Shown one piece after another: positions 1,973-55,837 of a stretch of DNA of 64,000 bases (position 1 is the stretch's first letter; each line of letters opens with the position of its first letter). The notes under the pieces are model-generated. The model did not search any database. It was not told the DNA's origin and was given only the letters and a program-made list of their open reading frames with translations. This DNA comes from Bdellovibrionia bacterium (GTDB lineage: Bacteria > Bdellovibrionota > Bdellovibrionia > Bdellovibrionales > JAGQZY01). The position numbers and the translations under genes were made by a program. The DNA is taken from the NCBI GenBank assembly GCA_030424665.1, contig JAUHWN010000003.1, positions 6,996 to 70,995 on the forward strand, written 5' to 3'.

Positions 1973-1995
1973 TTCGAATACAGAAGGATAAAACA

Positions 1996-2745: not shown

Positions 2746-2748
2746 TCT

Positions 2749-3797: not shown

Positions 3798-3800
3798 GTA

Positions 3801-8457: not shown

Positions 8458-8462
8458 GTTTT

Positions 8463-9305: not shown

Positions 9306-9366
9306 AAAGATTTGGACTTTTGAGAACTCGTTCTGTTTGATACCTTTAAGTTATAAGGAAGGTAGA

Positions 9367-10203: not shown

Positions 10204-10265
10204 AGTGTTTTAATCTTTTCGGGGCTCCTTGTTTCTCTTTAGTGGGTTAGGCTAAAATCGGTAGC

Positions 10266-11528: not shown

Positions 11529-11633
11529 GTTCTCCATAAAACCAAGTGAACAAAATCTAGAGACTCTCTATCGGTTCGATATTCATTTGGAATAGGAGCA
11601 AACCTTTTATTGAAATTACGATTCAAATGAAGT

Positions 11634-13127
11634 TTACCCACGAACTGAAAGAACTTTATCTTTGATTTTCTTAATCACTCGGGCTTCCATTTGCCGAACT
11701 GCCTCGCGGGTGACTCCCCACTCTTCGCCGATCTCTTGCAGTTTTTTGGGGTCTTCAGAGAGAATACGTTCTTCGAGAATATAGTTTTCTTTTTCGTTAA
11801 GAGTTGGCTTCAGCTCTTCAACCATATTGTTGAGGGTAGCGATTTCCTCAAAGTGCCCAAGAAGTTCATCGGGGCTCACATCATCAGAGCTTTCAAAATC
11901 AAGAAGACGCGTACTTCCGCTAGCATCGACTGGAGCATCAAGACTAATATCTCGACCTTGCATGCGCTTTTCCATAAGTTTGACGTCATCATCACCGACA
12001 CCAAGGCGCGCACTGAGCAATTTGACGGTAGGCTCAAGGCCCTCTTGCTCAATTTTCTTTTTTTCTTTCTCAAGGCGATAGAAAAGTTTTCTTTGATTGG
12101 CCGTCGTTCCGATTTTTACCATTGAGTACTGCTTCATAAGATACTCTTGAATGTATCCGCGAATCCACCAAACGGCATAGGTAATAAGGCGCACACCTTT
12201 ATAGGGGTTAAACTCTTTAACTGCATGCATGAGGCCGACGTTGCCCTCTTGAATGAGATCAATGAGCTTTGCCCCAAACTTTGCGTATTCGGATGCCACT
12301 TTGACCACAAAACGCAAATTGGACGTCACCAAAATCTCTGCATCTTTAGGATCACCCTTTTCTTTATAGCGTTTGGCTATTATTTGCTCTTGTTCTTTGG
12401 TCAGGAGTGGGTACTTGCGAATTTCAGCGAGATACATCCCAAGCCCATCGGTAACGCTGGTTGGGAGGTGAGAGTATTCTTCTTCGGTTTCTTCTTTTGT
12501 CGGTTCCGGGATTTTGTCGACGACTTCGGCCTTGAGGGCCTTTTCACCAGAGTGTTTTTTTAGGTCAGAAGTGGTGTTGTCGACTCCTCGAGAATGAACT
12601 TCAATGGAGTCATGGTCCTTTGGCTTGTCTTTTTGTTGGCTAACTCGTTCTTTTTGCGAAGAGCCTTCGCTTTCCCAAGAGTCATCGTCAAGAATTTCGA
12701 CTTCGACCTTTTTGGCTTCACTCGCCGATGGCACTTCCGAAGAACTATTTGAGCGGATCTTTTTTCTTGAAACCTTCTTTGCTGAGGCTTTTCTTGAGAT
12801 TTTAGTGGCAGTTTTTTTCTTCGCAGTGGCCTTTTTCTTAGAAGGAGCTGATTTCTTTTTGCTAACTTTCTTTGCGGAAGCCTTCTTTGTGACTGTTTTT
12901 TTCTTCGTCATCGACTTTTTTGCGGATTTCTTTTTTTTGGTTTTTTTTGATGTCGACTTTTTCTTTACTGATTTCTTAGCGGATTTCTTCGCCGTAGATT
13001 TCTTCTTCTTTGTCGAAGACTTTTTAGCGGCCGCCTTTTTAGAGGACGATTTCTTTTTTATGGCCGTTTTTTTCTTTTTGCTCGAAGATTTTTTCGCCGA
13101 GACCTTTTTCTTTTTTGCTGCGGCCAT
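11634..13127 (-). CDS. RpoH-family (sigma-32-like) RNA polymerase sigma factor with a lysine-rich N-terminal extension
   Basis: 497 aa. The C-terminal ~275 aa carry sigma-70 regions 2-4 (DLIQEGNVGLMHAVKEFNPYKGVRLITYAVWWIRGYI; LQEIGEEWGVTREAVRQMEARVIKKI) and the RpoH-box-like QRKLFYRLEKEKK. The first ~125 aa are K/A/S/T repeats (AKKSSSKKKKTAIKKKSSSKKAAAKK...). Confidence 0.85.
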   Translation of the reverse strand: MAAAKKKKVSAKKSSSKKKKTAIKKKSSSKKAAAKKSSTKKKKSTAKKSAKKSVKKKSTSKKTKKKKSAKKSMTKKKTVTKKASAKKVSKKKSAPSKKKATAKKKTATKISRKASAKKVSRKKIRSNSSSEVPSASEAKKVEVEILDDDSWESEGSSQKERVSQQKDKPKDHDSIEVHSRGVDNTTSDLKKHSGEKALKAEVVDKIPEPTKEETEEEYSHLPTSVTDGLGMYLAEIRKYPLLTKEQEQIIAKRYKEKGDPKDAEILVTSNLRFVVKVASEYAKFGAKLIDLIQEGNVGLMHAVKEFNPYKGVRLITYAVWWIRGYIQEYLMKQYSMVKIGTTANQRKLFYRLEKEKKKIEQEGLEPTVKLLSARLGVGDDDVKLMEKRMQGRDISLDAPVDASGSTRLLDFESSDDVSPDELLGHFEEIATLNNMVEELKPTLNEKENYILEERILSEDPKKLQEIGEEWGVTREAVRQMEARVIKKIKDKVLSVRG

Positions 13128-13135
13128 AGGATTTC

Positions 13136-13441
13136 CTAAGCTAGAGCATTATCGAGTTTTTCTTTGAGGCTCGATTGAATTTTCCCTTTAAAGGGAGAGA
13201 GCATGAAGGGCAAATCAACCACGATTTCAACACTGGAACCATCGCCATCACCACTGACTCTCAACTGGGCAGAAAACTGTTTTCCCTTGGCCTGACCAGA
13301 ATGATTGGATTCGTTAAAATCAACCTTGTAGGACGGATCCAACTTTTTAAGGTCCGGGTCGTTAGAAATAAAGTCCTTAACCACCTCAAAGGCTTCGGCT
13401 TGGGTCTTAGCAGATTTGGAATTAACTGTTACTTTTGGCAT
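13136..13441 (-). CDS. Small conserved protein, resembles the putative polyhydroxyalkanoic-acid-system protein family (about 90-100 aa)
   Basis: Its layout resembles that family, with a C-terminal ...VEIVVDLPFMLSPFKGKIQSSLKEKLDNAL. The stop lies 8 nt before the sigma gene start, so the two are probably cotranscribed. The start could be 13441 (MPKVTV) or 13477. Family assignment is from memory only. Confidence 0.45.
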   Translation of the reverse strand: MPKVTVNSKSAKTQAEAFEVVKDFISNDPDLKKLDPSYKVDFNESNHSGQAKGKQFSAQLRVSGDGDGSSVEIVVDLPFMLSPFKGKIQSSLKEKLDNALA

Positions 13442-13597
13442 AGATACGAAATTATCGAGAAATTGCCCTTCTGTCATCAGAATATATATCGATCTGTGTC
13501 GAATTTCTCGCTGAGAGGCTTTGCCAAGCTGTGTTGTATCAGGTATTTAAGACTTTGGTTTTTAGCGTCCCGCCCAGGACCCAATAAGGAGAAATTA

Positions 13598-15413
13598 ATG
13601 AGTTTTATGAAGGAATGGAAGAGATCCAGCTACTGTGGAAGAGTTTCAACGGAGCAAGTTGGTGAAACCATTAATCTTATGGGCTGGGTCGATAATCGGA
13701 GGGACCATGGAGGCCTGGTGTTCGTCGATCTCAGAGATCGGGAGGGTACCGTACAAGTTGTTCTGGACCCGAACCAAGGTGCCATGAAAATTGCCAAAGA
13801 TTTCAAGCACGAAACCGTCGTTGCCATCCGCGGAGAGGTCAAAGCTCGCCCTGAGGGGATGATTAACAAAAAGATCCCTACGGGGGCCGTTGAGGTTTTG
13901 GCAGAGACCTGTGAGATTCTCTCTCAAGCGGAAACTCCACCCTTTCAGATCCATTCGACAAATGTATCTGAGGTGCTTAGACTTCAATACCGCTATCTCG
14001 ATTTTCGCACACCGAAACTCACCAACTACATTAAAACGCGCCACCTTCTCATGCAGAAGGTGCGACAATATCTGACCGAGAATGATTTTTTTGAAGTGGA
14101 AACTCCTATTCTCTATAAGAGCACTCCCGAGGGGGCGCGTGACTACTTGGTTCCTTCTCGAGTCCATCAAGGACATTTCTTTGCCCTTCCCCAATCGCCG
14201 CAAACATTGAAGCAGCTTTTAATGATTGGTGGGATGGATCGTTACTTTCAAATTGCTCGCTGTTTTCGCGACGAAGATTTGCGCGCAGACCGTCAGCCAG
14301 AATTCACTCAAATCGATATTGAGATGAGCTTTGTCGAAGCCGAAGACATTATGAGTATGACCGAAGAAATGTTGCAAAAAATATGGAAAGAGTTGAAGGG
14401 TGTAGAGGTGACGGAGATTCCTCGCATGACCTATCACCAAGCCATGGATCGTTATGGTTCTGATAAACCAGATATTCGCTTTGGTTTAGAAATAACGGAT
14501 TTAAAAGATGTAGCCGGAAGTATGGGCTTTCGCGTCTTTGACGATTGTCTATCGTCTGGCGGAATCGTTCGCGGAATTGCTCTCGCGCGGTAAGCTCGAT
14601 AAGCTGACAAGTATGGCTAAAAAAGCGGGAGCCAAGGGACTCGTTTGGATCAAGGTTGACGAGTCCGGCGCTTTGACTTCTCCAATCCTAAAAGCTCTCG
14701 GCGAAGAAAAATGCCAGAAATTATTCTCTGCTCTAACAAATGCTAAGAAAGGTCTCGCACTCCTGGTCGCTGATACCTACGACACCGCAAGTAGTGTACT
14801 CAGTAGTCTACGTCTTCATCTGGGTAGAGAGTTTGAACTCATTGATACGTCGAAAGATGCCTTCTGCTGGGTGACTGACTTTCCACTTCTCGAGTATGCC
14901 CCCGAAGAAAAGCGTTGGGTTGCAAGACACCACCCATTCACGATGGTTAAAGATGAATTTGTCGACAACCTTCTCGGTGATAAGCAAAATCAATCTCCGG
15001 ATACTTATTTGGCCAAAGCCTATGATCTTGTTTGCAACGGTTATGAGTTGGCTGGTGGAAGTGTTCGTATTCATAAGAACGAAGTTCAGCAAGAGATGTT
15101 TAACCTTCTTGGCATGAGTAAAGAAGAAGCCGAAGCTAAGTTTGGATTTTTCTTGGAGGCCTTGAAATACGGAACACCTCCTCACGGTGGAATCGCCTGG
15201 GGAATGGATCGACTTTCAATGATTCTTTGTGGAACTGACGCCATTCGCGATGTGATTGCCTTTCCAAAAACAACTAAGGCAACAGATCTTATGGCAAAAG
15301 CACCTTCGCGTGTTGAGCAGCAACAACTTTTGGAGTTAGGAATTCGCCTCGCGCCATCGGTTGAGAAGAAACTCGCAGAAGGCGAATCCACCCCCGTCGA
15401 TAACGAACTTTAG
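13598..15413 (+). pseudogene. aspS: Aspartate--tRNA ligase (AspRS), reading frame interrupted near 14576-14593
   Basis: The ATG at 13598 follows AAGGAG. The N-terminal part (13598-14593) has the OB-fold and class II motif regions (GWVDNRRDHGGLVFVDLRDREG; FFALPQSPQTLKQLLM; FRDEDLRADRQPEFTQID). It ends at a TAA right after GGIVRGIALAR. The rest continues in the +1 frame (14538-15413: LSRGKLDKLTSMAKKAGAKGLVWIKV...GGSVRIH...PPHGGIAWGMDRL). This may be a sequencing error. Confidence 0.8.
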
Positions 15414-16659: not shown

Positions 16660-17649
16660 TCAATGGATTGAAATAGAGCAGTAGGAAAGTTCTTGATCGT
16701 GAGAACCTAGAGAACATTCCATCCACTCCCGAAGAACATTGGCCGTTTGATTGGCCTGACTCTCTTCTATTTTACTTCGAGCTGTTTCAATAACAGCGAT
16801 AGCCGGCTCAGAAAGTCGGCTTTCGTCGTTTGAAAGTAGGTTCAATGCCTGATCAATTAAATCGCCAATTTTTAAAACCACAAGCAATCCAGCTTCGAAA
16901 AATTCTCTGCGCCAGTCTTTTTGGTCGATTTGCTCATAAACCATCGGAGCTGAAGGAGAAAAGTTGGCAAAACCATTTTCGAGTTCACGGTAAGCTATAT
17001 TTAAGATCAAGCGTGCCCGTCCCTGAATTCCTGCAATTGAATCTTTAAGTTGCTGACTTTGCTCTTGAAGAACTAATAATTGCTCAGGATCAATATCTTT
17101 ATAAGTTTCCTTTAATTGATCGATTTCGACAAAAATTCGCTCATGAATTCGATCATAGCTATAAAGATCGAGGTCGAGACTCATTAGAGTTTGGTATTGA
17201 TTTAGTGTTTTTTGTGCATCGACCTGTCCGAGAGAAGGACTGCGCAGAAGACTCTTTTTAGTTTTAATCACTTGGCTCCAAAGAAGTTCATAGGGAGCCA
17301 TAAGGGTGTGAAGATTTCTTACATCTTCAGAGAGCTTTTCGATGTCCTGAGCAAAGGGCATTTCGATCTGTGCGGGAGGAGCTTCAGCTTCGGGATCTTC
17401 ATCACCCGGAAGCCCTGGATTAACCGGCTCTGGTTCGGTTTCTTCGACTGTGGGGAAAGGACTATCTGCCAAAGCGGGGTCCTCTTCAGCCTCAGTCACT
17501 GGCGCTGCGAAACCTGAACCCGAAAATGGATTAAAAGCCCCATTGGGGTCAAACGTACCCGTAAAAGCATCTTCGGCCACAGAGTGGCTGCTCGAAAATA
17601 GTAGAGATATTGCAATTAAAAAGGGCGCCAAGGGCTTTAGATATTTCAC
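16660..17649 (-). CDS. Secreted hypothetical protein (acidic/Pro-rich N-terminal part, helical C-terminal part)
   Basis: 329 aa with signal peptide MKYLKPLAPFLIAISLLFSSSHSVAED. No recognisable domain. Confidence 0.6.
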   Translation of the reverse strand: MKYLKPLAPFLIAISLLFSSSHSVAEDAFTGTFDPNGAFNPFSGSGFAAPVTEAEEDPALADSPFPTVEETEPEPVNPGLPGDEDPEAEAPPAQIEMPFAQDIEKLSEDVRNLHTLMAPYELLWSQVIKTKKSLLRSPSLGQVDAQKTLNQYQTLMSLDLDLYSYDRIHERIFVEIDQLKETYKDIDPEQLLVLQEQSQQLKDSIAGIQGRARLILNIAYRELENGFANFSPSAPMVYEQIDQKDWRREFFEAGLLVVLKIGDLIDQALNLLSNDESRLSEPAIAVIETARSKIEESQANQTANVLREWMECSLGSHDQELSYCSISIH

Positions 17650-17766: not shown

Positions 17767-18870
17767 TTACTTATCTGCAATCGGTAGTGTGAATTCGACG
17801 TAAATAGCCCCATTATCAAACTTGATGTCCAGGGAGCTACCGTGAAGCTTTAGAAGACTTTGTGATACGGCTAAACCCAGGCCAGTTCCCTGGCTGTGAT
17901 TCATAAAGTCCTCGTCAATAGTAAATGGTTCTAAAAGTTGTTTAATTCTATCTTCTGGAATGGGGTCTGAAGAATTAGAAAAAGTGAGTGTACAGTTTCC
18001 CTTACTGACTTTACAGGTGATTTGGATGGTTTCACCTTCAGGGGTAAATTTGGCAGCGTTTTGCCAAAGTCGATGGGTGACATTGCGAATCGCCTTTGGG
18101 TCTGCTTTAAGGTGAACCTTCTTTAGGGACTTTTTGACTTTTAAATCTTTTTTCTCGATCAGATTTTGTACGTCTTTAGGAATGGGTTCAATGAGATCCT
18201 TGAGGAGGCAGGTTTCTCTTTTAATTTTAATTTGTCCCGTTTCTGCTGAGACAATTTGCAGAACATCTTCGACGAGACGCTTGAGTCGATAAGAACTTTT
18301 AGAAATTCGATCAACATAGAGTTCTTGTTCGGGGTCCATATTACTTTCCCCGAGAAGTTCGACGAAACTTAAAATTGCTGTCAGGGGAGTTTTTAACTCA
18401 TGGTTTACCAAGTACATGAAATTCATTTTTGCAGCGTCGAGACTTTTAAGTTCTTCGAGCGCTTTTTCAAGTTCGATATTTTTCCGTTTAATTTCTTCTT
18501 GCAGTTCGTAGCGTTCGACAGCCCGGTCGACAGCTGTGGTTAAATCCACAGGGTCCCAAGGTTTAGTGACATATCGATAGACTTGACCCGAGTTGATGGC
18601 ATCGATGACCGAGTCGATATCGGTATAACCAGTGAGTAGAATCCGAATTGTATTGGGTTGAATTTTTAGAGAACGGCTAAGAAATTCAACTCCTGTCATT
18701 TCTGGCATTCTTTGGTCGCTAATGATAACTGTAACTGGATTTTCGTCTAGTATAGAAATCGCTTCTGGACCGGAAGTGGCTTTAAAAACCTTAAACTTCT
18801 TCCTAAATAGTCGCTCGAGTGCGTCTACATTATCCACTTCATCGTCAACACAGAGAATTGCATGCTTCAT
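17767..18870 (-). CDS. Hybrid response-regulator receiver / histidine kinase
   Basis: N-terminal REC domain (ILCVDDEVDNV...VIISDQRMPEMTGVEFL...KPWD), HisKA H-box VNHELKTPLTAI, and a C-terminal HATPase_c domain (GTGLGLAVSQSLLKLHGS). Confidence 0.85.
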   Translation of the reverse strand: MKHAILCVDDEVDNVDALERLFRKKFKVFKATSGPEAISILDENPVTVIISDQRMPEMTGVEFLSRSLKIQPNTIRILLTGYTDIDSVIDAINSGQVYRYVTKPWDPVDLTTAVDRAVERYELQEEIKRKNIELEKALEELKSLDAAKMNFMYLVNHELKTPLTAILSFVELLGESNMDPEQELYVDRISKSSYRLKRLVEDVLQIVSAETGQIKIKRETCLLKDLIEPIPKDVQNLIEKKDLKVKKSLKKVHLKADPKAIRNVTHRLWQNAAKFTPEGETIQITCKVSKGNCTLTFSNSSDPIPEDRIKQLLEPFTIDEDFMNHSQGTGLGLAVSQSLLKLHGSSLDIKFDNGAIYVEFTLPIADK

Positions 18871-19062
18871 GAAGTTTTATATTAAATTTGAGCTACTTAC
18901 AGTTCAACAGGAAGATCAATAAGGGGACTATGGCCCCAGTCGTTTTGTATCTTAATTGTAAAATCAAGCCTTAGGTCTGAATTGCGCTGAATTGAGTCAA
19001 GGTTCACTCCTAAAGTGTCGAAAAGAAGTTGATAGGAGATTTTCTCCACGGGAGTGCACTGT

Positions 19063-21417
19063 ATGAAATATACAAGTATTTTGGCAATTTTAGTAAGCAT
19101 GACCTTTCTGCTGACGACAATAAAGTCGGAAGCATTTTCTGGTTATGGATACGGAATGTATGGAGCCATGCAAGCTTGCCCTTTTGGCGTTTCAGGAGCC
19201 AATGGAGCGAGTGACGACGAAGATGCGATTGATGAACTTCGAGGGGATCGTCGTGAATTGCAAGATCAAATTAGAGATTTAGAACGACTAATTGGTCGCG
19301 CTGATGATCGCATTCTAGAACTTCAAGACAAAGTGCAAAGGGTTGTGAATAGCGATTACTGGCCAGCTGTTGAAGAACATATTCGCGATCAGAAAAACTG
19401 TTCTTGCGATTACAGTGTACAGCTTCTTGATCCAGCATTTGCTCCTTCTATTGTCGCTCCCACAAGAGGCAGCAAAGTTATGGTCACAACGATGACCCCT
19501 AGATCAACAAGAGCTCCAGCGTCTGTAAGTCGCGGACCGGCTGGTGTGAATGCCGAAGAGCAAGCACCAGATGGTGTCTGTAACACAGCTCAAGATATTA
19601 TTGATCCCGATTGTGATGGTGCATGTGACCTTCGTCATGAAAATACCGATTTAGACTGCAGACCTCAAGAACAAGCGGCTACCGAAATTGATTGTAGTCG
19701 GCCGGAAAATCGAAGTAACCAAGCCTGTGCGACAGCGGCTGATCCCGAACAAGTTGGCCGATCTGAAGAAACCATCGAAGTTTCAACAGATGGATATTGT
19801 GAAGCGGGAACTGCCGGTTGTTCTCCACGAGAAGTTGCAGTAGATCCTGCACCAACGGGTCGAGACCCAGCTTCTGAACCGGGCTGTGCTGAACGTTTAA
19901 GAGGAGTCGGTGTTACTGACGAGTCCTATATTGCACGTAACTGTGCGCCGAGTTCGGTGAGTGCGGGCTATGATGATGGCGGATCACCTTTTTGTGTATC
20001 ACCAGAAACAGCCCCAATTGTAGTTACTGACAACTGGAGACGAATTTGTATTTCGAATGGTGGAATTCGTGCAGCTGTCTGTGATGGTGCTGCTTATACA
20101 AGAAACGGTGTGAGTTCAAGAGATCGTTCCGATTGTCGAAACGCTCTCAATAGACTTCGCCAAGCTCAAGATCGTAGAGCTTCTCTTGAGCGAAGATTAG
20201 CTGAATACAACGATCAACTCGGTACAATCGAAGATGATCTTGCCGATGCAGAATTTCGCAGAGACTTTGACGATGATCTCGAAGCGGATTGTGCCGATGG
20301 TGAATGTTACACCCGTCGCCACAGAAGAGATCGCGATAGAAATAGTTCTACTTCAAGTATCATTGGTACAATTGGGTCAATTGGTCTTGGTGCTTTAGGA
20401 CTTTACTTAGGAAATCGTCGAGCGAAGGAAGCGATCAATACGAACGCTGACTTGGGTTGGCCGACGAATCCGTACCTCGCCAGTGGATTTGGTTTTCCAT
20501 ACGCTGCTGCCGGGTTATACGGCGCACTTAATGGAGGACTCGGAGCTGGTGGCTTTGGTTGCGGTGCTGGTGGACTCGGTCCTTTGGGAATGGCATCACC
20601 TCTTGCTGCCCTCGGTATGTACGGTGGCGGTCTTGGCGGTGGAATGTTTATGCCGGGAATGGGACCATGGGGAATGGCTGGCCTTGGTGGCGGAATTCCT
20701 GGAATGGGAATGGGCGCTCTCGGTGGCTTTGGTGCCATTGGTGGAGCTATGGCCCTTGGGGGTCTCGGCGCTTACGGAACTCTTGGTGGACTCGGTTACA
20801 TGGGGGCGCTTGGAGCTTATGGTGCTCTTGGAGGACAACTCGGTGGAATTGGTGCTTTAGGCGGACCCATTGGTGGTCTCGGTATGATTGGTGGAATTCA
20901 GGTTGGCGTGCTCGGTGGATACGGAGCCCTCGGCGGCGGACTCGGAGCCCTCGGAACCATTGGTGGTCTCGGCGCCCTTGGAGGTGGACTCGGAGCCTTA
21001 GGCGGTGGTCTTGGCGCTCTTGGAGGCGGACTCGGAGCCTTAGGCGGTGGTCTTGGCGCTCTTGGAGGTGGACTCGGCGCTTTAGGCGGTGGTTTGGGTG
21101 CCCTTGGAGGAGCGCTTGGCGGTCAATACACACAACAACTACTGCAGTTACAAATGCAACAACAACAGCAGCAAGCCGCTCAATTACGAGAGTACACATC
21201 TTTGATGCAAGAATACCAATCCCTTCAATTGAGACTGATGCAGTTTAACGGACTCGGTGGAGTTGGTGGTCTTGGTGGAGTTGGAGGACTCGGTGGCGTT
21301 GGAGGACTCGGTGGAATCGGTGGGGCCCTCGGTGGGGGAACTCTTCTTCCGACAAGTCCTACGACTCCAATTAATTCTTTCCCTGGATCGGGTACGACTC
21401 CTTCGCGAAGTCGATAA
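19063..21417 (+). CDS. Large secreted/membrane protein: coiled coil, Cys-rich region, TM-like segment, Gly/Leu/Ala-rich repeats, poly-Q
   Basis: The ATG at 19063 has GGAG 8 nt upstream. The track starts at the GTG at 19054. The signal peptide is MKYTSILAILVSMTFLLTTIKSEA. About 20 Cys lie between two coiled-coil-like segments. The hydrophobic segment IIGTIGSIGLGALGLYLG is followed by NRRAKE. Then comes ~320 aa of GGLGALG-type repeats, QQLLQLQMQQQQQQAAQL and GLGGVGG repeats. Confidence 0.75.
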   Translation: MKYTSILAILVSMTFLLTTIKSEAFSGYGYGMYGAMQACPFGVSGANGASDDEDAIDELRGDRRELQDQIRDLERLIGRADDRILELQDKVQRVVNSDYWPAVEEHIRDQKNCSCDYSVQLLDPAFAPSIVAPTRGSKVMVTTMTPRSTRAPASVSRGPAGVNAEEQAPDGVCNTAQDIIDPDCDGACDLRHENTDLDCRPQEQAATEIDCSRPENRSNQACATAADPEQVGRSEETIEVSTDGYCEAGTAGCSPREVAVDPAPTGRDPASEPGCAERLRGVGVTDESYIARNCAPSSVSAGYDDGGSPFCVSPETAPIVVTDNWRRICISNGGIRAAVCDGAAYTRNGVSSRDRSDCRNALNRLRQAQDRRASLERRLAEYNDQLGTIEDDLADAEFRRDFDDDLEADCADGECYTRRHRRDRDRNSSTSSIIGTIGSIGLGALGLYLGNRRAKEAINTNADLGWPTNPYLASGFGFPYAAAGLYGALNGGLGAGGFGCGAGGLGPLGMASPLAALGMYGGGLGGGMFMPGMGPWGMAGLGGGIPGMGMGALGGFGAIGGAMALGGLGAYGTLGGLGYMGALGAYGALGGQLGGIGALGGPIGGLGMIGGIQVGVLGGYGALGGGLGALGTIGGLGALGGGLGALGGGLGALGGGLGALGGGLGALGGGLGALGGGLGALGGALGGQYTQQLLQLQMQQQQQQAAQLREYTSLMQEYQSLQLRLMQFNGLGGVGGLGGVGGLGGVGGLGGIGGALGGGTLLPTSPTTPINSFPGSGTTPSRSR
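20977..21102 (+). repeat. Three tandem 42-bp repeats (two GGGLGAL heptapeptides each) inside the Gly-rich gene
   Basis: The unit CTTGGAGGTGGACTCGGAGCCTTAGGCGGTGGTCTTGGCGCT occurs at 20977-21018, at 21019-21060 (1 mismatch) and at 21061-21102 (more diverged). Degenerate copies flank it. Confidence 0.85.
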
Positions 21418-21442
21418 AAAACTTAAAAATTTGATTTTAACA

Positions 21443-21470
21443 ATGGGGCTTTTACAAGCCCCATTTTTTT
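21443..21470 (+). terminator. Rho-independent terminator after the Gly-rich gene
   Basis: Stem ATGGGGC / GCCCCAT with an 8-nt loop, followed by T7. Confidence 0.7.
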
Positions 21471-22086
21471 AGAAGCTGATGCTGGTTTGGGGCACGCGCG
21501 AAACCCTCTCTGTATCTGATCTCCTATTGAAATTATGCTGATAAATCTTAACCCCAGCGAAAACACCCAAAGCACCCAGTCCCCAGTACAGCCATTCCCT
21601 CTTCGAGGACCCTGCCACTCTATGTTTGGTCTCGGGGAGTTTTGGTGAATCTAGTACGCTAACGGAGCTGACAGCGAGTTCCTTTTCGTTTGCTTTTGTT
21701 GATTCATCGGAGGGTTTTTGATTGATGTACTCAAGAACTAAGGGAGGTGGAAAAAGCTCCAAGTCTATCCCACTGCCGTCTGCAAACTTCCAGGCTTTTG
21801 CCAGAAGTACTAATCGCAATTGCTCACGAGAGGTCAACTGGGCACATCGAAGGAGGGCGTAATGAAGTAACTCTTTTGTCGAACCCGTGAGTGTCTGATT
21901 CTCATATTTCTCTATCAGAGACATAAATTGATCACGAGCCTCGTTTAGGGTTCCTTCGTGATAAGTTTTCTGTGCCTTTTCGAAATCCTTGATGAGTAAT
22001 CCCTCAATTTCTTGAGAGGCATTAGCCCAGTGAAGGTTCCATGCACTCAGCGTGAAGAAAAAGATAAGTATATTCAAAAGATTCAT
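21469..22086 (-). CDS. Hypothetical exported protein with a helical (TPR-like?) region and a C-proximal TM segment; last gene of the Tad-like module
   Basis: 205 aa with signal peptide MNLLNILIFFFTLSAWNLHWANA and TM segment WLYWGLGALGVFAGVKIY. Its start overlaps the upstream gene's stop by 4 nt. Confidence 0.55.
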   Translation of the reverse strand: MNLLNILIFFFTLSAWNLHWANASQEIEGLLIKDFEKAQKTYHEGTLNEARDQFMSLIEKYENQTLTGSTKELLHYALLRCAQLTSREQLRLVLLAKAWKFADGSGIDLELFPPPLVLEYINQKPSDESTKANEKELAVSSVSVLDSPKLPETKHRVAGSSKREWLYWGLGALGVFAGVKIYQHNFNRRSDTERVSRVPQTSISF

Positions 22087-22613
22087 AGCTCCCCCAAAGT
22101 ATTTTTTAGATAAATGATGCGATCTTTGTTTGGATCTTTATCAATTTTAGTACCAAGTTTATTTGGGTTGTGAACGGCAACCCAGTAGAGACGGTCTTGA
22201 CTGAGAACTTGTGGAACTTCGGTCTCTGGGATTAAAATACTAACTTCAGATGCCCTCTGTGGGGACCTGAGAAGGCGCAGGGCTGATCCAATTCTTCTTG
22301 TGCTTTTTTCATCTGGATTTTTTCCGTAAAGATCTACAACAGCTTTATTTCCAATTATCGAGTCTAAATTCTTAGAATTTTGAATTTCAAGGGGAACGAG
22401 TACATAGCCCTGGGGAATGTAGGTATCGACCAACTGCTCGATGGGCTGTTTGTGGCCATCGGCATCTTTGAAACTATGAGCAATGAAACTAGAAGTAGCA
22501 ATGAGGAGGGCTCCATAAATGGGCCACCTGAATTGAATGATCTTCGCTTTAATGGTTTTGATTAATAGAGTGCTAGGAGCAGTAATTTCAGGGGCTTTTA
22601 GTGTGAAATCCAT
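22083..22613 (-). CDS. CpaB/RcpC-like pilus assembly protein (short, no obvious SAF domain)
   Basis: 176 aa with one N-terminal TM (WPIYGALLIATSSFIA). The pattern IPQGYVLVPLEIQ...IIGNKAVVDLYG...EVSILIPETEVPQVL...LYWVAVHNP follows the RcpC/CpaB C-terminal domain pattern. This is a motif-level call. Confidence 0.45.
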   Translation of the reverse strand: MDFTLKAPEITAPSTLLIKTIKAKIIQFRWPIYGALLIATSSFIAHSFKDADGHKQPIEQLVDTYIPQGYVLVPLEIQNSKNLDSIIGNKAVVDLYGKNPDEKSTRRIGSALRLLRSPQRASEVSILIPETEVPQVLSQDRLYWVAVHNPNKLGTKIDKDPNKDRIIYLKNTLGEL

Positions 22614-22734
22614 TTTCTATGACCTCGGTAGAAGTTGTTTCAAAATCAAAAAAAAGAATAAGAAGGGCCGAAAGAATCATAATGATGATTAAGAGCTCTA
22701 GGAGGCCCTGTCCCTTTTCAGATAGATACGCCAT
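22588..22734 (-). CDS. 48-aa Flp/TadE-type prepilin-like peptide (not in the ORF track, below cutoff)
   Basis: Hand translation gives MAYLSEKGQGLLELLIIIMILSALLILFFDFETTSTEVIENGFHTKSP. It shares the EKGQGxxE-plus-hydrophobic-stretch motif with the two neighbouring pilin-like genes. It overlaps both flanking genes. Confidence 0.4.
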   Translation of the reverse strand: MAYLSEKGQGLLELLIIIMILSALLILFFDFETTSTEVIENGFHTKSP

Positions 22735-23423
22735 GGTGTCTCTCCTTTAAAGTCGATTTGTGCTCGGCAACGAATAGGATCATTCTCAACTCCTCCAATT
22801 TTTTTTATAAAAGGATCAATGTAGGTGATTTTGTTTGTCCAACTCAGTGGTCTTGAGTTTTTGCGATGAGTGTCCCAGGAATAAGTCCTTCCAAGCCCTT
22901 TAAGAGACTCTGTTTTAGTTACCAGAAGATGGTGAAAACCCGGTTTAATATGAACGTGACACTCTCTTTTCAGAATGGAGTTGCTTCGGCAAAAGAACTT
23001 CTTAAGTTTGACTTTAAATCGACTGATGTGCAGTCGGCTCTTTCCTTGGGCCCCCAGTTCAATGAGGTCTTGTTTTTTCGCGATGTTTTGCAAATTCTTT
23101 CGCAGTCGATTGATTCGAATCAAAATTTTAGCTTTATGGGCTGGAGAGGGATGGGCTCCCAATTTGGCTATCTCAAGCGCGATTTTTGTCCGCAACCGGT
23201 AGACATGTGTGTTGGTATCAATGAGTTTTTGCGAAGCCTTAGCCAAAATCCAGTGGTGTTTAACAATAGTTTTGCGGCAAAGTTGTTTTTGCGCAAAATG
23301 GTTTCCCAGGGAATATCGAAAAAGTGAGCTAGCCAGGATCGACAATATAATTACGGGAAGAAGAAATCCGAAACTGACGAGTAGACTTCCATTATCATCT
23401 TTTGTCATTTGCGGTTCTTTCAA
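22698..23423 (-). CDS. TadG-like pilus-associated protein
   Basis: 241 aa. The N-terminus DNGSLLVSFGFLLPVIILSILA resembles the TadE/TadG-type N-terminal segment. The rest is basic and unrecognised. Confidence 0.4.
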   Translation of the reverse strand: MKEPQMTKDDNGSLLVSFGFLLPVIILSILASSLFRYSLGNHFAQKQLCRKTIVKHHWILAKASQKLIDTNTHVYRLRTKIALEIAKLGAHPSPAHKAKILIRINRLRKNLQNIAKKQDLIELGAQGKSRLHISRFKVKLKKFFCRSNSILKRECHVHIKPGFHHLLVTKTESLKGLGRTYSWDTHRKNSRPLSWTNKITYIDPFIKKIGGVENDPIRCRAQIDFKGETPWRIYLKRDRAS

Positions 23424-23784
23424 AAGGTTTCATAGACATCGTGTTAAAAAGCCTAAGGGGATGATTAAAAAAAGGAATAGGGTGTCCCCAAAGTTCTTGT
23501 TTTAAGTGCAGTTGACGGTTGAAACCCTTTTCAATTTTGACGTCTGACTTTAGGAGAGGAAAGAAGAAGCGACTTCTTTTGCGATATTCATCAAGACAAG
23601 GTTTTTCTCTCTCGACAATACTATGGCAAAGAAGTAATTCATGGCCGGCAAAAAGGTGAAGCTGTCGGGCCATACTCAAAAGACTTAGAAGTATAAAACT
23701 AAAAGAAAACAATAATAAAATTGGGAGGCAAAAGAGCGTTTCTATCGCGGATTGCCCCTTTTCGTTTTTTAAACCTATCTTCAT
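23395..23784 (-). CDS. TadE-like pseudopilin
   Basis: 129 aa. The N-terminus MKIGLKNEKGQSAIETLFCLPILLLFSFSFILL has the G/xxxxE processing-type motif followed by a hydrophobic helix. Confidence 0.55.
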   Translation of the reverse strand: MKIGLKNEKGQSAIETLFCLPILLLFSFSFILLSLLSMARQLHLFAGHELLLCHSIVEREKPCLDEYRKRSRFFFPLLKSDVKIEKGFNRQLHLKQELWGHPIPFFNHPLRLFNTMSMKPFERTANDKR

Positions 23785-23799
23785 CTTTCTACTCTTTTC

Positions 23800-24054
23800 T
23801 TACTGAGTTGCCACACCATTGAAAAAGTCAGACATGTCTTTTTTCTTAGTGTGACTTTCTTGCACCGGAGCGACTTTGATACGTTTTTTACTTCCCCCTT
23901 GAATGGCATAAGTGACTTGGGCGAATTTTGCACTGACCGTTTGATTAAGTGTCCTAACAATGGCTATGGTTGCAACTCCCATTAGGGCAACCAATAGTAA
24001 ATATTCAATCAGACCCTGGCCGTTTTCGTTTTTGTGGAATAGGTGTTTTTGCAT
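23800..24054 (-). CDS. flp: Flp-family type IVb pilin
   Basis: 84 aa. HKNENGQGLIEYLLLVALMGVATIAI matches the Flp motif (G/xxxxEY followed by a hydrophobic stretch). It is the first gene of the minus-strand module. Confidence 0.7.
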   Translation of the reverse strand: MQKHLFHKNENGQGLIEYLLLVALMGVATIAIVRTLNQTVSAKFAQVTYAIQGGSKKRIKVAPVQESHTKKKDMSDFFNGVATQ

Positions 24055-24280: not shown

Positions 24281-25435
24281 ATGAGAACGTTGACTGAACG
24301 GGCCGCAAAGATTCTCCTATGGAGGATCTTGCTAGCCTCTTTCGTTGTGTTTTCGCTCGGTTGCGAGGAAAACACGGTGGAGGATGGGGGTTCCACGGTC
24401 GACGTCATTCCGTCCGATCCTGATGACCCTTTCTTCCCCGGAGCATTCGTATGTGACGCCTTTAGTGGCGCGGACGATATCACTGATGTCAGTCAGGGTA
24501 TCGTAGGGTCCCTGTTTTATCTAGAAGACGGGGTGACTCCCTATGGTAACGTTCACGACTATATTAATCTCGGTACTGAAGTGACCGATGTCTCTCTCTT
24601 TTTTAACCAGATTAACATTCCAACCCGGCCATGGGATCGCGGGTTTGTAACACGCGATGGAGAAGTCATTCAAACAGAGGATGGAGATACTTTGTATGAG
24701 TGGTTTGCCATGAACATGGATACAGATATTGTTTTAACCAGCGAAGAGCCCGAGGGTGATTATCAGTTCGCCATACTATCAGATGATGGCGCAGTACTTA
24801 CGATCGATGGTCAAGTCATCGTCGATAATGACGGTGATCATCCAACGCGCTTTGGCTGTGCTGATACGCCGATTAGTATCGACCAAGCCAGTCGCCTCGA
24901 GGCGAATATCAAGTACTACCAAGGACCTCGTTACCACATTGCCATGATTGTTATGTGGCGTCCTTGGCCTGAAAACATTGCCGATGTCGATGACCCCGAG
25001 TGTGGAAGAGAAGGGAACTCGAGATTTTTTGATTCGACTCAAGACCCGCCAACACCCCAACAAAGCTATCAAGATTTACTCAATCGTGGGTGGGCTCCTT
25101 TGGGAGCAGCCAATTTTAAAGTGCCTGGAGACATCATTAATATGTGTAACTTTCCGGCACCAACAATTTCTAGTATTCAATTTAATGACCTTGGGTCGAC
25201 CTATGTAGAACTCATGTTTTCTACGAATATTCCATCTAAGTTTTATATAGAGGTCACAAACCTAGCCACTGGAGAAGTCACTCAATCTCCGGTGAGTGAT
25301 AACTATGTGAAAAATCATATGGGTTCAGTCACAAGTCTGGAGCCATTTACACTTTATAAGGCAGAAATAGTCGCGAGTAGTGTTTCAGGAAGAGAGACGA
25401 GAAGCGCCCCACTCAACTTTAGGACGCGTCCATAG
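24281..25435 (+). CDS. PA14-domain exported protein (possible lipoprotein) with a C-terminal FN3-like module
   Basis: 384 aa with a signal sequence ending in a Cys (FVVFSLGCEEN). The PA14 signature is GDYQFAILSDDGAVLTIDGQVIVDNDGDHP. The C-terminal ~90 aa are beta-sandwich-like (YVELMFSTN...YKAEIVASS). The stop abuts the next gene's ATG (TAGATG). Confidence 0.7.
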   Translation: MRTLTERAAKILLWRILLASFVVFSLGCEENTVEDGGSTVDVIPSDPDDPFFPGAFVCDAFSGADDITDVSQGIVGSLFYLEDGVTPYGNVHDYINLGTEVTDVSLFFNQINIPTRPWDRGFVTRDGEVIQTEDGDTLYEWFAMNMDTDIVLTSEEPEGDYQFAILSDDGAVLTIDGQVIVDNDGDHPTRFGCADTPISIDQASRLEANIKYYQGPRYHIAMIVMWRPWPENIADVDDPECGREGNSRFFDSTQDPPTPQQSYQDLLNRGWAPLGAANFKVPGDIINMCNFPAPTISSIQFNDLGSTYVELMFSTNIPSKFYIEVTNLATGEVTQSPVSDNYVKNHMGSVTSLEPFTLYKAEIVASSVSGRETRSAPLNFRTRP

Positions 25436-27514
25436 ATGAAAGTAAAATTTTCGATTCGATATAAGTTTTTGGCTGTTACCACTTTGCTCTTGCTGAGTTG
25501 TGTAACTTTATATTTGCTTCTCGCTTCAACCATTTTTAGTCGCGATAAAACAGAGCTTGTTTTTGATTTAAACAAGTCCACTGTTCATAATATTCGCTCA
25601 GAGATGGAAGCGGTCTTTTCTTCTGTGAGTGATAAGTTAGAGCTTTTTGCTTTGATTTCTCAATCTAAGCTCAAAGTCAAAAAAGAATTTCATCGCATTC
25701 TCGATAATGACGACACAATAGTTTATGTCCATTCTACGAATTCCAATAAATTTCAAAAGACGAGTGAATACAGTCAAAAGAAGTTTCTTCAGACTTATGG
25801 TCTTGAGGAAAAGTACTTTAAAGAAACCCTTCCGGGTATTAGAGCCGTTCCGATGGATGAGATTAAAGCCAATGGTCTTGCCTATTGGAATGCGACAGTG
25901 GATGGCGGTCCATTTTTAGTTGGAGTTGGTCGAAGTGTTGTACAAGAAGATTCCCGTGGCGTGGCCGTTTCACAGTTTGCTGTTATTAGTTATGTGCGAA
26001 TGGATCGTATCGCCAAAATGATAAACGAACTTCGAACCAACGAGGTGAGTATTGTCAGTGATCAAGGACAAGTTATTGTTGGCTACGGAGCGAAAGAAGC
26101 AAAGCCATGGGAGCTCTTTAGTCTTGCTCAAAGGAATCCTTTGAATTTAGGTGTTCTTGAGTATCAAGATCAGCAGGGTAAAAAGATGCTCGGCGGATTT
26201 TCTAAAAGTACGAAAAATCGTTTTTATGTACTTTCGCGGGTCGCGTCTGACAAGGTATTCGCTGTGGTCGAGAATCTCGTCTATCGCTCCATTGTGTTCG
26301 GCCTTATTATTGTGACATTGACCTTTATTGCCGCGATATTATTTTCACGCTCTATTACCCGACCTCTAGACACTCTCGTTGATGGTATGAAAGAAGTTTC
26401 TGGGGGAACATTATCTAAGCATATCGAATTGCGAACGATTGACGAAACAGCAGTTTTAGCCTCTTCTTTTAATCGAATGATTGATGATTTAAAAGAGTCT
26501 CGAGATCAACTTGAAGAGATAAATCGCGATCTCGAACAAAAAGTAAAAGATCGCACTAAAATGCTCGAAGAGCAGAATCGCGCGGTCAAACAGGCTCAAG
26601 AAGCATTGCTAAAGACGACCCGCCTCGCCTCGGTTGGAGAGATTGCGGGTCGCGCAGCTCATGAAATTCTCAACCCTTTAACGTCGATCATGACCAGAAT
26701 TAAGAAGGTGAGCGATAAGATAGAAGGTAATGCTGTCACAGATATTCAGTTTTTGGCCGAAATTCAGTCGAGCTGGGAAAACGACTTTAAATCGGGTGGC
26801 TTTGAAAAGTTGATTGCAGAGTGGCAGAAACCCTCTGAGGTAGATCAAGACAGTAATCTGTGGAACGAAGACATGAGTCATCTTAAAGAGGTGAATAAGA
26901 GTGTTGTCGATCAACTGACCTCATTGACGAACGATATGAAATTCCTGCTGAGTGAGTCTCAGAGAATTAGTAAGATTGTTCAGAGTATGAGATCCCTGTC
27001 TATAGTTAAGGGGAACAAGGCCAAGTATTCGGCCCATAAGCTTCTTCATGAGTCTGTGAATATAATGGGTGACCTCTTTGCACAGAATGAAGTTGAAGTC
27101 GTTGAGTGGTACGAAGCCAAAGAAGATGAAATTGTTGTTGATCGCGATGAATTCATCCAGAGTTTGACGAACCTTCTGCGCAATTCTCTGCAAGCAGTTC
27201 AAGAGATCGACAGGGACGGTTACAAACCGAAAATAGGATTGTTAACACGAATCGAAGAAGGCGAATTGATTATCGAAGTTGTTGATAACGGCACAGGGAT
27301 CGAGCCAGAACATAGAACTAAACTTTTTGAAACCCAGTTTTCTACAAAAGATCGCGAAGAGGGGACCGGCTTGGGCTTAAGCATCTCAAGACGATTTATT
27401 CGCGCCTACGGTGGTGATATTAAATTCATGGGTGACAACGAAAATTGGAACGCAGTCTTTCGTATTACGCTTCCCGCAAAAGAAGTTGAAAGACCGATGG
27501 AGGCCGCAGCATGA
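25436..27514 (+). CDS. Sensor histidine kinase (two TM, ~260-aa periplasmic domain, HAMP, HisKA, HATPase_c)
   Basis: 692 aa. TM1 is FLAVTTLLLLSCVTLYLLLAS and TM2 is IVFGLIIVTLTFIAAILFS. HAMP region: RPLDTLVDGMKEVSGG...FNRMIDDL. H-box: AAHEILNPLTSI. G-boxes: DNGTGIEPE and GTGLGLSISRRF. Confidence 0.85.
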   Translation: MKVKFSIRYKFLAVTTLLLLSCVTLYLLLASTIFSRDKTELVFDLNKSTVHNIRSEMEAVFSSVSDKLELFALISQSKLKVKKEFHRILDNDDTIVYVHSTNSNKFQKTSEYSQKKFLQTYGLEEKYFKETLPGIRAVPMDEIKANGLAYWNATVDGGPFLVGVGRSVVQEDSRGVAVSQFAVISYVRMDRIAKMINELRTNEVSIVSDQGQVIVGYGAKEAKPWELFSLAQRNPLNLGVLEYQDQQGKKMLGGFSKSTKNRFYVLSRVASDKVFAVVENLVYRSIVFGLIIVTLTFIAAILFSRSITRPLDTLVDGMKEVSGGTLSKHIELRTIDETAVLASSFNRMIDDLKESRDQLEEINRDLEQKVKDRTKMLEEQNRAVKQAQEALLKTTRLASVGEIAGRAAHEILNPLTSIMTRIKKVSDKIEGNAVTDIQFLAEIQSSWENDFKSGGFEKLIAEWQKPSEVDQDSNLWNEDMSHLKEVNKSVVDQLTSLTNDMKFLLSESQRISKIVQSMRSLSIVKGNKAKYSAHKLLHESVNIMGDLFAQNEVEVVEWYEAKEDEIVVDRDEFIQSLTNLLRNSLQAVQEIDRDGYKPKIGLLTRIEEGELIIEVVDNGTGIEPEHRTKLFETQFSTKDREEGTGLGLSISRRFIRAYGGDIKFMGDNENWNAVFRITLPAKEVERPMEAAA

Positions 27515-29233: not shown

Positions 29234-29367
29234 TTATGTAAACTCAGTTCCCTTTTAAGTGAGATTTGGGAACTCGATTTTAGTCAGTATGTGTCCTCGA
29301 TCAAGGTTTGTAGGACTGTGTGAATTTTTTAAGGTGTGGGATAATTAAAGTGAGAAAGAGGAACTGG

Positions 29368-55205: not shown

Positions 55206-55224
55206 GTGAGGCCCACGAGTTCAC

Positions 55225-55836: not shown

Positions 55837-55837
55837 A

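Follow-up and report, generated by a model that had tools for sequence, protein, structure and literature searches.

The stretch of DNA analysed here, referred to as the window, comprises 64,000 nucleotides of a Bdellovibrionia bacterium (contig JAUHWN010000003.1, positions 6,996 to 70,995), and the gene at 19063–21417 on its forward strand raises the question of what kind of protein joins a Cys-containing, coiled-coil N-terminal half to a long glycine-rich C-terminal half. An initial annotation, made from the sequence alone, had described the product as a chimeric protein. Judged by its alignments, the protein clearly belongs to an undescribed family of predatory Bdellovibrionota, which is recognised here by a set of eight conserved Cys together with five motifs and whose sequences have been present in databases as hypothetical proteins. 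The gene is real and under strong purifying selection. As to its function, we tentatively favour a wholly exported, self-associating envelope protein with an elastic or tethering role, coupled to the neighbouring kinase and Tad-like locus.

An Undescribed Protein Family of Predatory Bdellovibrionota

A word-indexed search with the full protein returned a single homologue (P0001, 706 residues, modules in the same order) because low-complexity words swamped the candidate list, a difficulty that was overcome by N-terminal alignments and a full HMMER scan. A profile of the N-terminal 500 residues retrieved 351 sequences at E ≤ 1e-3, and 67 at E ≤ 1e-30, from 1.84 billion representatives, and a genome scan recovered 40 loci with the N-terminal WGxGMYGGMQxC motif. 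Thirty-eight of these loci are labelled Bdellovibrionota (Bdellovibrio bacteriovorus strains, other Bdellovibrio species, Pseudobdellovibrionaceae and unclassified Bdellovibrionales), while the remaining two, labelled Bacillota and Proteobacteria, both have a Bdellovibrio-type gene neighbourhood. Almost every named source genome of family members is one of the Bdellovibrionota; homologues are also found in complete Bdellovibrio genomes, and B. bacteriovorus genomes carry two paralogues each.

The members are named in databases either 'hypothetical protein' or by spurious coiled-coil names. Scans of Pfam (window protein at E ≤ 10, four homologues at E ≤ 5) and NCBIfam (E ≤ 1) yielded only weak coiled-coil noise (Prefoldin, DivIC, THO7-like, SMC-like), which explains stray names such as 'septum formation initiator' and 'THO complex subunit 7'. 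Exact-sequence look-ups of the window protein in the protein collection gave no match, and full-text literature searches on Bd3299–Bd3307, on Gly/Met-rich Bdellovibrio proteins and on abductin together with Bdellovibrio found no account of the family. With the Pfam, NCBIfam, PDB sequence and PDB fold searches all negative, the initial statement that no characterised family has this architecture holds. It had also been considered that the Gly tract might be a common feature of some well-known Cys-domain family; the tract is indeed a family feature, but the family is an uncharacterised one.

Throughout the family the modules follow one order. A signal peptide is followed by WGxGMYGGMQxC(P)Y, a first helix, F.F.H.E...C..Y.G and a variable linker; then come F...EW...C....G.V....C...........C, a second helix, EGG.C..C (C-x4-C in the window protein) and a Gly-rich hydrophobic segment. 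Beyond this segment lie N..N.GWPT.PY...G.YGA..GG.G.G.FGC and a charge-free tract with PGMGPWGM, and the chain closes with a Gln-rich heptad helix (...SLQQE.Y.L..R.QQ.Q), a Gly/Ser/Thr/Pro tail and a final Arg, which is the last residue in 123 of 128 complete family proteins. The window protein carries the signal peptide with WGxGMYGGMQxC, GWPT.PY ... GGFGC, PGMGPWGM, the charge-free tract, the Gln helix and the C-terminal Arg, as well as all eight Cys that are conserved (invariant or in columns of at least 90%), namely C39, C113, C329, C340, C358, the C-x2-4-C pair and the Cys of FGC. Since all modules occur together and in the same order across this large family, the architecture is ancestral, and the description as a chimera has to be abandoned.

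The charge-free tract is 40–491 residues long in the family (median 196) with median contents of 36% Gly, 23% Met (maximum 40%) and 2% Leu. The window protein and its closest relative are the Leu-richest members, with 19% Leu and 6% Met in the tract. Met and Leu are thus interchangeable across the family, which places the constraint on Gly together with a flexible hydrophobic side chain and the absence of charge, and not on Met chemistry.

That closest relative is encoded at the near-identical locus L002 (JAUICP010000002, a Bdellovibrionia metagenome-assembled genome), an independent assembly with 92.5% DNA identity over 19 kb, whose product shows 96% protein identity in its first 500 residues. 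Twenty substitutions and three indels separate the two proteins, and each indel is in-frame within a repeat: +3 and +4 residues in the GGGLGAL array, and −6 in the GLGGVG array, which is the shorter in L002. Against L002, the ratio of non-synonymous to synonymous substitution rates (dN/dS, Nei-Gojobori) came to 0.044 for the whole gene; it was 0.09 for the Cys-rich stretch and 0.006 for residue 501 to the end, where 56 changes are synonymous and 1 is non-synonymous. The tract evolves by repeat slippage and keeps its composition: repeat number drifts while the protein sequence stays tightly held.

Anatomy of the Window Protein

The gene and the modules of its product are as follows (window coordinates, strand).

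19050–19054, +: Shine-Dalgarno-like GGGAG, 8 nucleotides 5' of the ATG at 19063 (direct sequence reading).
19063–21417, +: complete gene, 784 codons and stop (open reading frame listing, homologues, dN/dS of 0.044 against L002).
19063–19134, +: Sec signal peptide MKYTSILAILVSMTFLLTTIKSEA, residues 1–24, cleavage after SEA (n-, h- and c-regions; S at −3, A at −1).
19135–19212, +: N-terminal motif GYGMYGAMQACPFG (family WGTGMYGGMQxCPY) with invariant Cys39 (G31, G34, Q37 and C39 invariant in alignments).
19216–19338, +: predicted stalk helix 1, residues 52–92 (AlphaFold2, predicted local distance difference test score, pLDDT, 89–97; also in the model of a Bdellovibrio orthologue).
19393–20037, +: lineage-specific insertion between the stalk helices, residues 111–325 (gaps in 27 of 28 homologues).
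20038–20337, +: conserved segment (W325, C329, C340, C358), predicted stalk helix 2 (residues 352–411) and C-x4-C (C410, C415) (invariant alignment columns; AlphaFold2 pLDDT 91–97).
20353–20412, +: Gly-rich hydrophobic segment SSIIGTIGSIGLGALGLYLG, residues 431–450, then NRRAKE; doubtful as a transmembrane segment (hydrophobicity, AlphaFold2 helix).
20413–20562, +: N..N.LGWPT.PY ... G.YGA..GG.G.GGFGC block, residues 451–500, with invariant Cys500 at its end (alignments: G465, W466, P467, G477, G487, G499, C500).
20563–21126, +: charge-free Gly/Leu/Ala low-complexity tract, residues 501–688, including PGMGPWGMAG (composition, family comparison).
20962–21110, +: 42-bp repeat array encoding seven GGGLGAL heptads (Tandem Repeats Finder).
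21127–21240, +: Gln-rich heptad helix, residues 689–726 (family ...SLQQE.Y.L..R.QQ.Q; family-conserved, AlphaFold2 helix 690–727).
21241–21414, +: Gly-rich, then Pro/Thr/Ser tail ending in FPGSGTTPSRSR, with C-terminal Arg (P774 and R784 nearly invariant).
21250–21315, +: 18-bp tandem repeat, 3.7 copies, GLGGVG units (Tandem Repeats Finder, 85% matches).
21442–21465, no strand assigned: terminator-like hairpin AATGGGGCTT-TTAC-AAGCCCCATT, then a T run (terminator scan: 10 pairs, 5 of them G-C).

Most of what had been read from the sequence was borne out: the signal peptide, the coiled-coil-like segments and the hydrophobic stretch with NRRAKE are supported by sequence and AlphaFold2 helices, the Gly/Leu/Ala/Met tract with its seven heptads and 42-bp repeats is present, and the poly-Q helix, the GLGGVGG tract and the Pro/Thr/Ser tail occupy residue 689 onward. 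All homologues carry AQA/AQ-type cleavage sites at the position of the signal-peptide site, and for the h-regions of the family the Kyte-Doolittle mean over 12 residues has a median of 2.2. There is no lipobox, the cleavage site being of the signal peptidase I type (SEA, then F), and the C-terminal residue is Arg and not Lys.

The whole protein has 20 Cys (positions 39, 113, 115, 173, 184, 188, 199, 211, 222, 246, 253, 275, 294, 311, 329, 340, 358, 410, 415 and 500). The 'Cys-rich ectodomain' of about 270 residues found no support, being mostly the lineage-specific insertion: this holds 13 of the 20 Cys, only C113 among them family-conserved, its residues 118–271 were modelled as disordered at pLDDT below 50, and it has no family match in Pfam. 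At the insertion site relatives have mostly about 30 acidic residues, and some deep branches have Pro-rich linkers. The Gly tract itself (residues 501–688, 188 residues) is 47% Gly, 19% Leu, 13% Ala and 6% Met, and the charge-free run, in which Asp, Glu, Lys, Arg and His are all missing, takes up the 245 residues that lie between positions 463 and 709. By composition, it does look like the elastic or self-associating type that had been suggested.

Start Site, Base Composition and Repeats

The open reading frame was listed at 19054–21417 (+) from a GTG start, with 787 residues, and the ATG at 19063 gives 784; the initial annotation described it correctly apart from its length of 785. The 42-bp array comprises 3.5 copies with 90% matches (score 235), and since a 21-bp period matches at just 66%, the amplified unit is a pair of heptads with different codons. 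The terminator-like hairpin, with its 10-bp stem, sits between the gene and its convergent neighbour.

As had been noticed, the gene is richer in G+C (0.47–0.53) than its surroundings (about 0.40–0.45). The excess is confined to codon positions 1 and 2 (Gly and Ala codons), and G+C at third positions (GC3) is 0.22–0.42, at or below the 0.38–0.47 of the neighbours, so that the difference is an effect of amino-acid composition, gives no sign of foreign origin and is of no use as a distinguishing mark. Foreign origin was rejected on this ground and because synteny with Bdellovibrio extends through the backbone on both sides (fliA ... rpoD ... aspS ... folD). A further G+C bump at 30–31 kb is caused by a second Gly-rich exported protein (29320–31122, 600 residues) with poly-Gly tracts and a C-terminal hydrophobic segment followed by RRKKR, for which Pfam gave no match and which bears no relation to the protein studied here.

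Regular-expression scans upstream of 17 orthologues found no sigma-28 or sigma-54 promoters, and a sigma-70 promoter scan of the window gave matches at chance level. An element CCTGACGAT-N8-AACGATAGAAG-T-run-ATCCTTTTCAGGAGA, holding a direct repeat ACGATA about 12 bp apart, is conserved about 60 nucleotides 5' of the orthologue starts in a dozen Bdellovibrio genomes (loci L010–L036) and may serve as a promoter or as the site of a regulator. The upstream region in the window resembles it only loosely.

Predicted Structure

AlphaFold2 was run on the full window protein with a 29-sequence alignment. The mean pLDDT was 52, and the long helices 52–92 and 352–411 were modelled confidently (about 90–97). 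Short elements appeared near residues 100–108, 275–294 and 324–341, whereas residues 118–271, 490–689 and 727–784 stayed below 50, the Gly tract being unstructured in the model. The hydrophobic segment was modelled as a helix (431–463) at pLDDT 50–59 and the Gln helix (690–727) at 52–58. In the model of a compact Bdellovibrio orthologue of 342 residues, helices 49–92 and 182–239 flank a small Cys-containing region. On these models the two helices probably pair as an antiparallel hairpin stalk of about 6–8 nm, stapled by disulfides, which would put the variable insertion at the distal tip of the stalk and both Gly-rich chain ends at its base.

A Foldseek search of the PDB with the full-length model produced zero matches, and with the compact orthologue the best hits were antiparallel coiled coils of the dynein-stalk or seryl-tRNA-synthetase type (best E = 0.39, none significant). 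A PDB profile search returned nothing below E = 0.1.

Topology of the Hydrophobic Segment

Whether the Gly-rich half is exported depends on residues 431–450, as this half would be cytoplasmic only if the hydrophobic segment were a stop-transfer anchor. The segment of the window protein is borderline, with a Kyte-Doolittle 19-residue mean of about 1.7 (calculated by hand) and a summed Hessa free energy (dG) of +2.8 kcal/mol, the fifth lowest of the family. Family medians are 0.89 and +6.6, respectively, and 1 of 159 members reaches a Kyte-Doolittle value of 1.6. The initial annotation had itself been wary of a transmembrane segment with a cytoplasmic Gly-rich half. The borderline value of the window copy would allow its reading of the segment; the far weaker family values and the invariant Cys500 lean the other way.

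That annotation had also invoked the positive-inside rule to place the Gly-rich half in the cytoplasm. The charges do not bear this out: the 15 residues that precede the segment carry a net +4, against +1 behind it, opposite to the expectation, and in Bdellovibrio orthologues both sides are at about 0. Conserved Cys flank the segment on each side, Cys500 being the one beyond it, and with Cys500 the conserved Cys number is eight, which is even. The weak family hydrophobicity, the charge pattern and the invariant Cys500 make us lean towards full export and leave the transmembrane reading of the segment doubtful.

Genomic Context

For gene-order maps, the open reading frames of 41 related loci and the window (42 loci) were clustered. 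The neighbours of the gene in the window are as follows.

17767–18870, −: divergent neighbour, a sensor-less hybrid response regulator-histidine kinase (REC-HisKA-HATPase; Pfam).
21469–24054, −: convergent operon encoding a 205-residue exported protein with a C-terminal hydrophobic segment, proteins of 176 and 241 residues, a TadE-like minor pilin and a Flp pilin (order conserved across loci).
23395–23784, −: TadE-like minor pilin (Pfam TadE, below gathering score).
23800–24054, −: Flp pilin (Pfam Flp_Fap, below gathering score).

In the recurrent order, aspS lies on the far left, followed by genes for a TadA-like ATPase (T2SSE), a secretin and the REC-HisKA-HATPase kinase, all three divergent from the family gene. 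To its right come an amidohydrolase gene in the same direction (where present), then, in the opposite direction, genes for an exported protein of 290–350 residues, proteins of 160 and 240 residues, the TadE-like protein, Flp and a small Ala/Lys-rich protein, and finally folD. The arrangement of tadA2-rcpA2-kinase, family gene and TadE-like-Flp genes occurs in most loci. Of the 42 loci, 36 encode a histidine kinase that falls in one BLAST cluster with that of the window, in most cases directly beside the family gene.

The window and L002 keep the kinase and the pilin operon, and both lack the secretin and ATPase genes at this locus; no secretin was found among the window open reading frames scanned. 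Consequently, the kinase is the most constant partner of the family gene, and the link to the secretin is frequent and not obligatory. At 16660–17649 of the window an unrelated exported, acidic, Pro-rich protein of 329 residues without family match occupies the place where 30 related loci have the secretin (rcpA2) and 27 the TadA-like ATPase.

By gene order, the locus matches the one named 'tad locus 2' in B. bacteriovorus HD100, where it is described as a duplication of the rcpA-tadA module (bioRxiv 10.64898/2026.07.08.737194) and where bd3306 is annotated 'pilQ' and bd3307 'cpaF' (PMC3818213) and bd3297 is flp3 (PMC5430801); fliA is bd3318. The locus-2 genes are reported to have expression profiles distinct from those of the core tad genes. 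The hit locus (Bd0108/Bd0109), considered because of the Tad context and a 42-bp deletion, was rejected, as its gene order differs and the matching locus is bd3297–bd3307, not bd0108–0121.

The Probable HD100 Orthologue and the Second Paralogue

From the gene order we infer that the HD100 orthologue is Bd3304 (Q6MI66, 'uncharacterized'), which lies between Bd3303 (metal-dependent hydrolase) and Bd3305 (response-regulator receiver). In a time-resolved proteome Bd3304 was detected with 18 unique peptides (PMC12546842, supplementary data), at log10 abundances of 6.61 in attack phase, 6.29 at 4 h and 6.83 at 7 h; its abundance was lowest at 3–4 h and highest at 6–7 h, and that of Bd3305 ran parallel (PMC12546842).

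Upstream of the second paralogue are genes for an OmpR-type regulator and a HAMP kinase, and downstream those for an L,D-transpeptidase and citrate synthase, with no secretion genes nearby. In loci L007, L008, L015, L025 and L029 the regulator and HAMP kinase are always upstream and a 505-residue L,D-transpeptidase downstream; this neighbour and the C-terminal Arg of the family raise the question of whether there may be a link to peptidoglycan. In HD100, gene order places this paralogue between Bd0562 and Bd0569, and the likely candidate is Bd0565 (unannotated, 12 peptides).

Possible Function and Alternative Explanations

A wholly exported, self-associating envelope protein is the explanation that we put forward tentatively. 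In such a protein the whole chain would cross the inner membrane, and the weakly hydrophobic Gly-rich segment would serve as a membrane-associating or self-associating element and not as a stop-transfer anchor. Disulfides would staple the predicted antiparallel helix stalk, whose tip would carry both the insertion and the small Cys-containing region. The N-terminal stalk and the C-terminal Gln helix could act as association points with a flexible, cohesive Gly-rich spacer between them, and two such modules joined by such a spacer would make an elastic, gel-like or tethering assembly in the predator envelope. Self-assembling triblock protein gels and natural elastomers are built in this way, from association modules that a flexible cohesive spacer joins. 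Production or function of the protein may be coupled to the adjacent kinase and Tad-like machinery, and, as a speculation, the C-terminal Arg may guard a non-polar, unfolded tail against tail-specific proteases, one of which, Bd0967, is abundant in HD100. A more far-reaching version, which we regard as improbable, is that Bd3304-family proteins make a charge-free cohesive protein phase outside the cytoplasm, a bacterial counterpart of abductin-type rubber or of the gel of phenylalanine-glycine (FG) nucleoporins. Here, the disulfide-stapled stalk and the Gln helix would be 'stickers' that network a Gly/Met or Gly/Leu spacer. On this version, such a phase would lend elasticity to the invasive envelope or else gate or seal a Tad-like secretin during prey attachment, entry or exit, and its contacts would be adjusted by the variable region that separates the stalk helices.

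Several observations weigh against the explanation by full export and coupling to the locus. The segment of the window copy is borderline competent for membrane insertion, and hydrophobicity scales discriminate poorly here, as they also score presumed transmembrane segments of the neighbours low (0.9–1.1). The secretin and ATPase genes are missing from the locus in the window and L002, and published work reports that deletion of rcpA2-tadA2 leaves predation unimpaired and that flp3 is silent, which makes a role in the main Tad pilus unlikely. In addition, the assignment of Bd3304 comes from gene order, not from its sequence.

The first of these observations suits a type I single-pass inner-membrane protein, with the stalk as a periplasmic sensor or adhesion module and the Gly tract and Gln helix as a cytoplasmic, condensate-like scaffold feeding the sensor-less kinase. 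This topology, the one of the initial annotation, is the main rival, though we consider it unlikely: the window segment reaches the classical threshold, lies before NRRAKE and is modelled within helix 431–463, the adjacent kinase lacks a sensor or transmembrane domain, both paralogue types stand beside two-component genes, and Gly/Gln/Tyr/Met-rich charge-free tracts generally resemble prion-like domains. However, the family median hydrophobicity is far below transmembrane values, with 1 of 159 members reaching 1.6, the net charges lie the wrong way round in the window copy and are near 0 in Bdellovibrio, the helix is of low confidence, and the invariant Cys500 lies beyond the segment and completes an even set of eight. 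Less probable again is that the protein is a dedicated cargo of the locus-2 secretin and ATPase, a type II secretion system-like exporter with Flp3/TadE-like pseudopilins, and is displayed on the surface or released, with the Gly tract acting as a non-specific glue or as a glycine-zipper element that inserts into prey outer membranes. In its favour, most loci have the gene divergent from the kinase-secretin-ATPase operon and convergent with the pilin genes, the stalk helices enclose a variable region of the kind that would be expected to evolve fast on an exposed surface, and Bd3304 abundance peaks in the late and attack phases. Nevertheless, the gene is strongly constrained in the window and L002, where secretin and ATPase are absent from the locus, the published deletion and silence of flp3 speak against such a cargo too, the second paralogue has no secretion genes nearby, and Pfam glycine-zipper models are unmatched.

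That the protein is Met-rich in order to buffer Cu(I)/Ag(I) or oxidants in the periplasm, under the adjacent two-component system and akin to Met-rich copper-resistance proteins, is very unlikely. The high Met content of the family tract and the position of the second paralogue directly downstream of an OmpR-type regulator and HAMP kinase would fit, and a copper-type P-type ATPase is encoded elsewhere in the window, though unlinked; but the window tract, under the strongest constraint, has Leu/Ala in place of Met, the tract contains no His, Cys, Asp or Glu, and metal-binding family models are unmatched. Lastly, the initial annotation had allowed for misassembly or for an open reading frame that is not expressed. 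Short-read assemblies can collapse or expand tandem repeats, this assembly looks to be of metagenome type, and the nearby aspS is split by a frameshift. An artefact of misassembled repeats or a non-coding or decaying frame is nonetheless effectively refuted, the exact repeat number aside, by the same gene with in-frame repeat differences only in the independent L002 assembly, by the low dN/dS, by hundreds of homologues including those of complete Bdellovibrio genomes, and by detection of the inferred orthologue as a protein.

Comparison With Known Systems

In composition the protein resembles abductin, elastin and FG nucleoporins and in context a Tad accessory protein, and as far as its sequence tells it is a member of none of these groups. 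Abductin (Gly/Met), the hydrophobic domains of tropoelastin and flagelliform silk share with it long, tandem, almost chargeless repeats of Gly and hydrophobic residues. By analogy, the usual Gly/Met composition of the family comes nearest to abductin and the GGLGAL and GLGGVGG strings of the window copy nearest to elastin. Unlike these animal elastomers, the family is bacterial and Sec-exported, lacks Lys/Ala cross-linking domains and has coiled-coil modules and conserved Cys flanking the tract. No Pfam or PDB match pointed to homology with animal elastomers, and all relatives found come from bacterial genomes or assemblies. The cohesive domains of FG/GLFG nucleoporins likewise combine a charge-free, disordered tract of Gly and hydrophobic residues with coiled-coil elements, and the family gene neighbours a gene for a large channel, the secretin, in most genomes, though not in the window locus. 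The family hydrophobics, however, are Met, Leu, Tyr and Pro and not Phe, and the likeness is one of composition.

Glycine-zipper envelope proteins (SlyB/PCP-type lipoproteins; the contact-dependent bacteriocins CdzC/CdzD) have in common with the family GxxxG-rich hydrophobic stretches, export and an association with self-assembly. The family protein is far larger, without lipobox and with a coiled-coil stalk and Gln helix, and the models Gly-zipper_Omp, Gly-zipper_YMGG and Rick_17kDa_Anti gave no match (window protein at E ≤ 10, four homologues at E ≤ 5). The likeness to the Tad/Flp (type IVc) accessory proteins RcpB, RcpC, TadD and TadG is that the gene lies inside a conserved Tad-like cluster. 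This cluster is the accessory 'locus 2', dispensable for predation, the gene persists without secretin and ATPase, and Tad, Rcp and Cpa family models left the window protein unmatched in the Pfam and NCBIfam scans.

Braun lipoprotein (Lpp) is comparable in its coiled coil and basic C-terminal residue, and one paralogue adjoins an L,D-transpeptidase gene. The family protein differs in lacking a lipobox, in ending with Arg and not Lys and in being about 10 times larger, and Lpp appeared among weak coiled-coil PDB-profile matches at E of about 0.35–0.6, which are non-significant noise. The magnetosome proteins Mms6, MamG and MamD share LG-repeat hydrophobic tracts that are thought to self-associate; those are small integral magnetosome membrane proteins of another lineage, without coiled coils and without homology to the family.

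Other Features of the Window

A flagellar export cluster occupies 755–10146 (fliO, fliP, fliR, flhB, flhA, flhF and a MinD/ParA-like gene, then a fliA-type sigma factor gene), and is followed on the opposite strand by an rpoD-type sigma-70 gene (11634–13127), the backbone being syntenic with the Bdellovibrio bd3304–bd3318 region. Between fliA and rpoD, a segment of about 1.4 kb (10204–11646) with a glycosyltransferase gene (10266–11528, GT28/UDPGT-type) is absent from the otherwise collinear L002 and is a recent insertion or deletion. The aspartyl-tRNA synthetase gene (13175–15413) is split in two overlapping open reading frames (13175–14593 and 14538–15413), where L002 has one of 752 codons; this looks like a frameshift near 14540–14590, to be put down to an error in sequencing or to a pseudogene.

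Beyond the Flp gene lie genes for an exported protein with PA14 and fibronectin-III domains (24281–25435), a HAMP histidine kinase (25436–27514) and a REC-HATPase hybrid (27511–28815), so that 24281–28815 forms a dense signalling neighbourhood specific to the window lineage. An ordinary-looking cbb3-type oxidase region at 53069–60474, unlinked to the family gene, encodes a fused CcoN-CcoO (56002–58215), a FixG-like ferredoxin (53760–55205), a heavy-metal P-type ATPase (58351–60474) and a DsbD-like protein (53069–53785).

Significance for Bacterial Predation

To our knowledge, exported bacterial proteins with 150–490 residues of charge-free Gly/Met or Gly/Leu sequence are undescribed. The family is seemingly confined to obligate bacterial predators, of both periplasmic and epibiotic lineages. 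Predators that enter their prey must deform and seal a pore, and if the family indeed forms an elastic or cohesive envelope material, the cell biology of prey invasion would gain components of a new class, and a natural Met-to-Leu substitution series would be at hand for the study of such materials. If, instead, the protein is a membrane-anchored cytoplasmic scaffold, this would explain the input to the sensor-less kinase. Under either reading, Bd3304 and its paralogue are a concrete and genetically tractable target.

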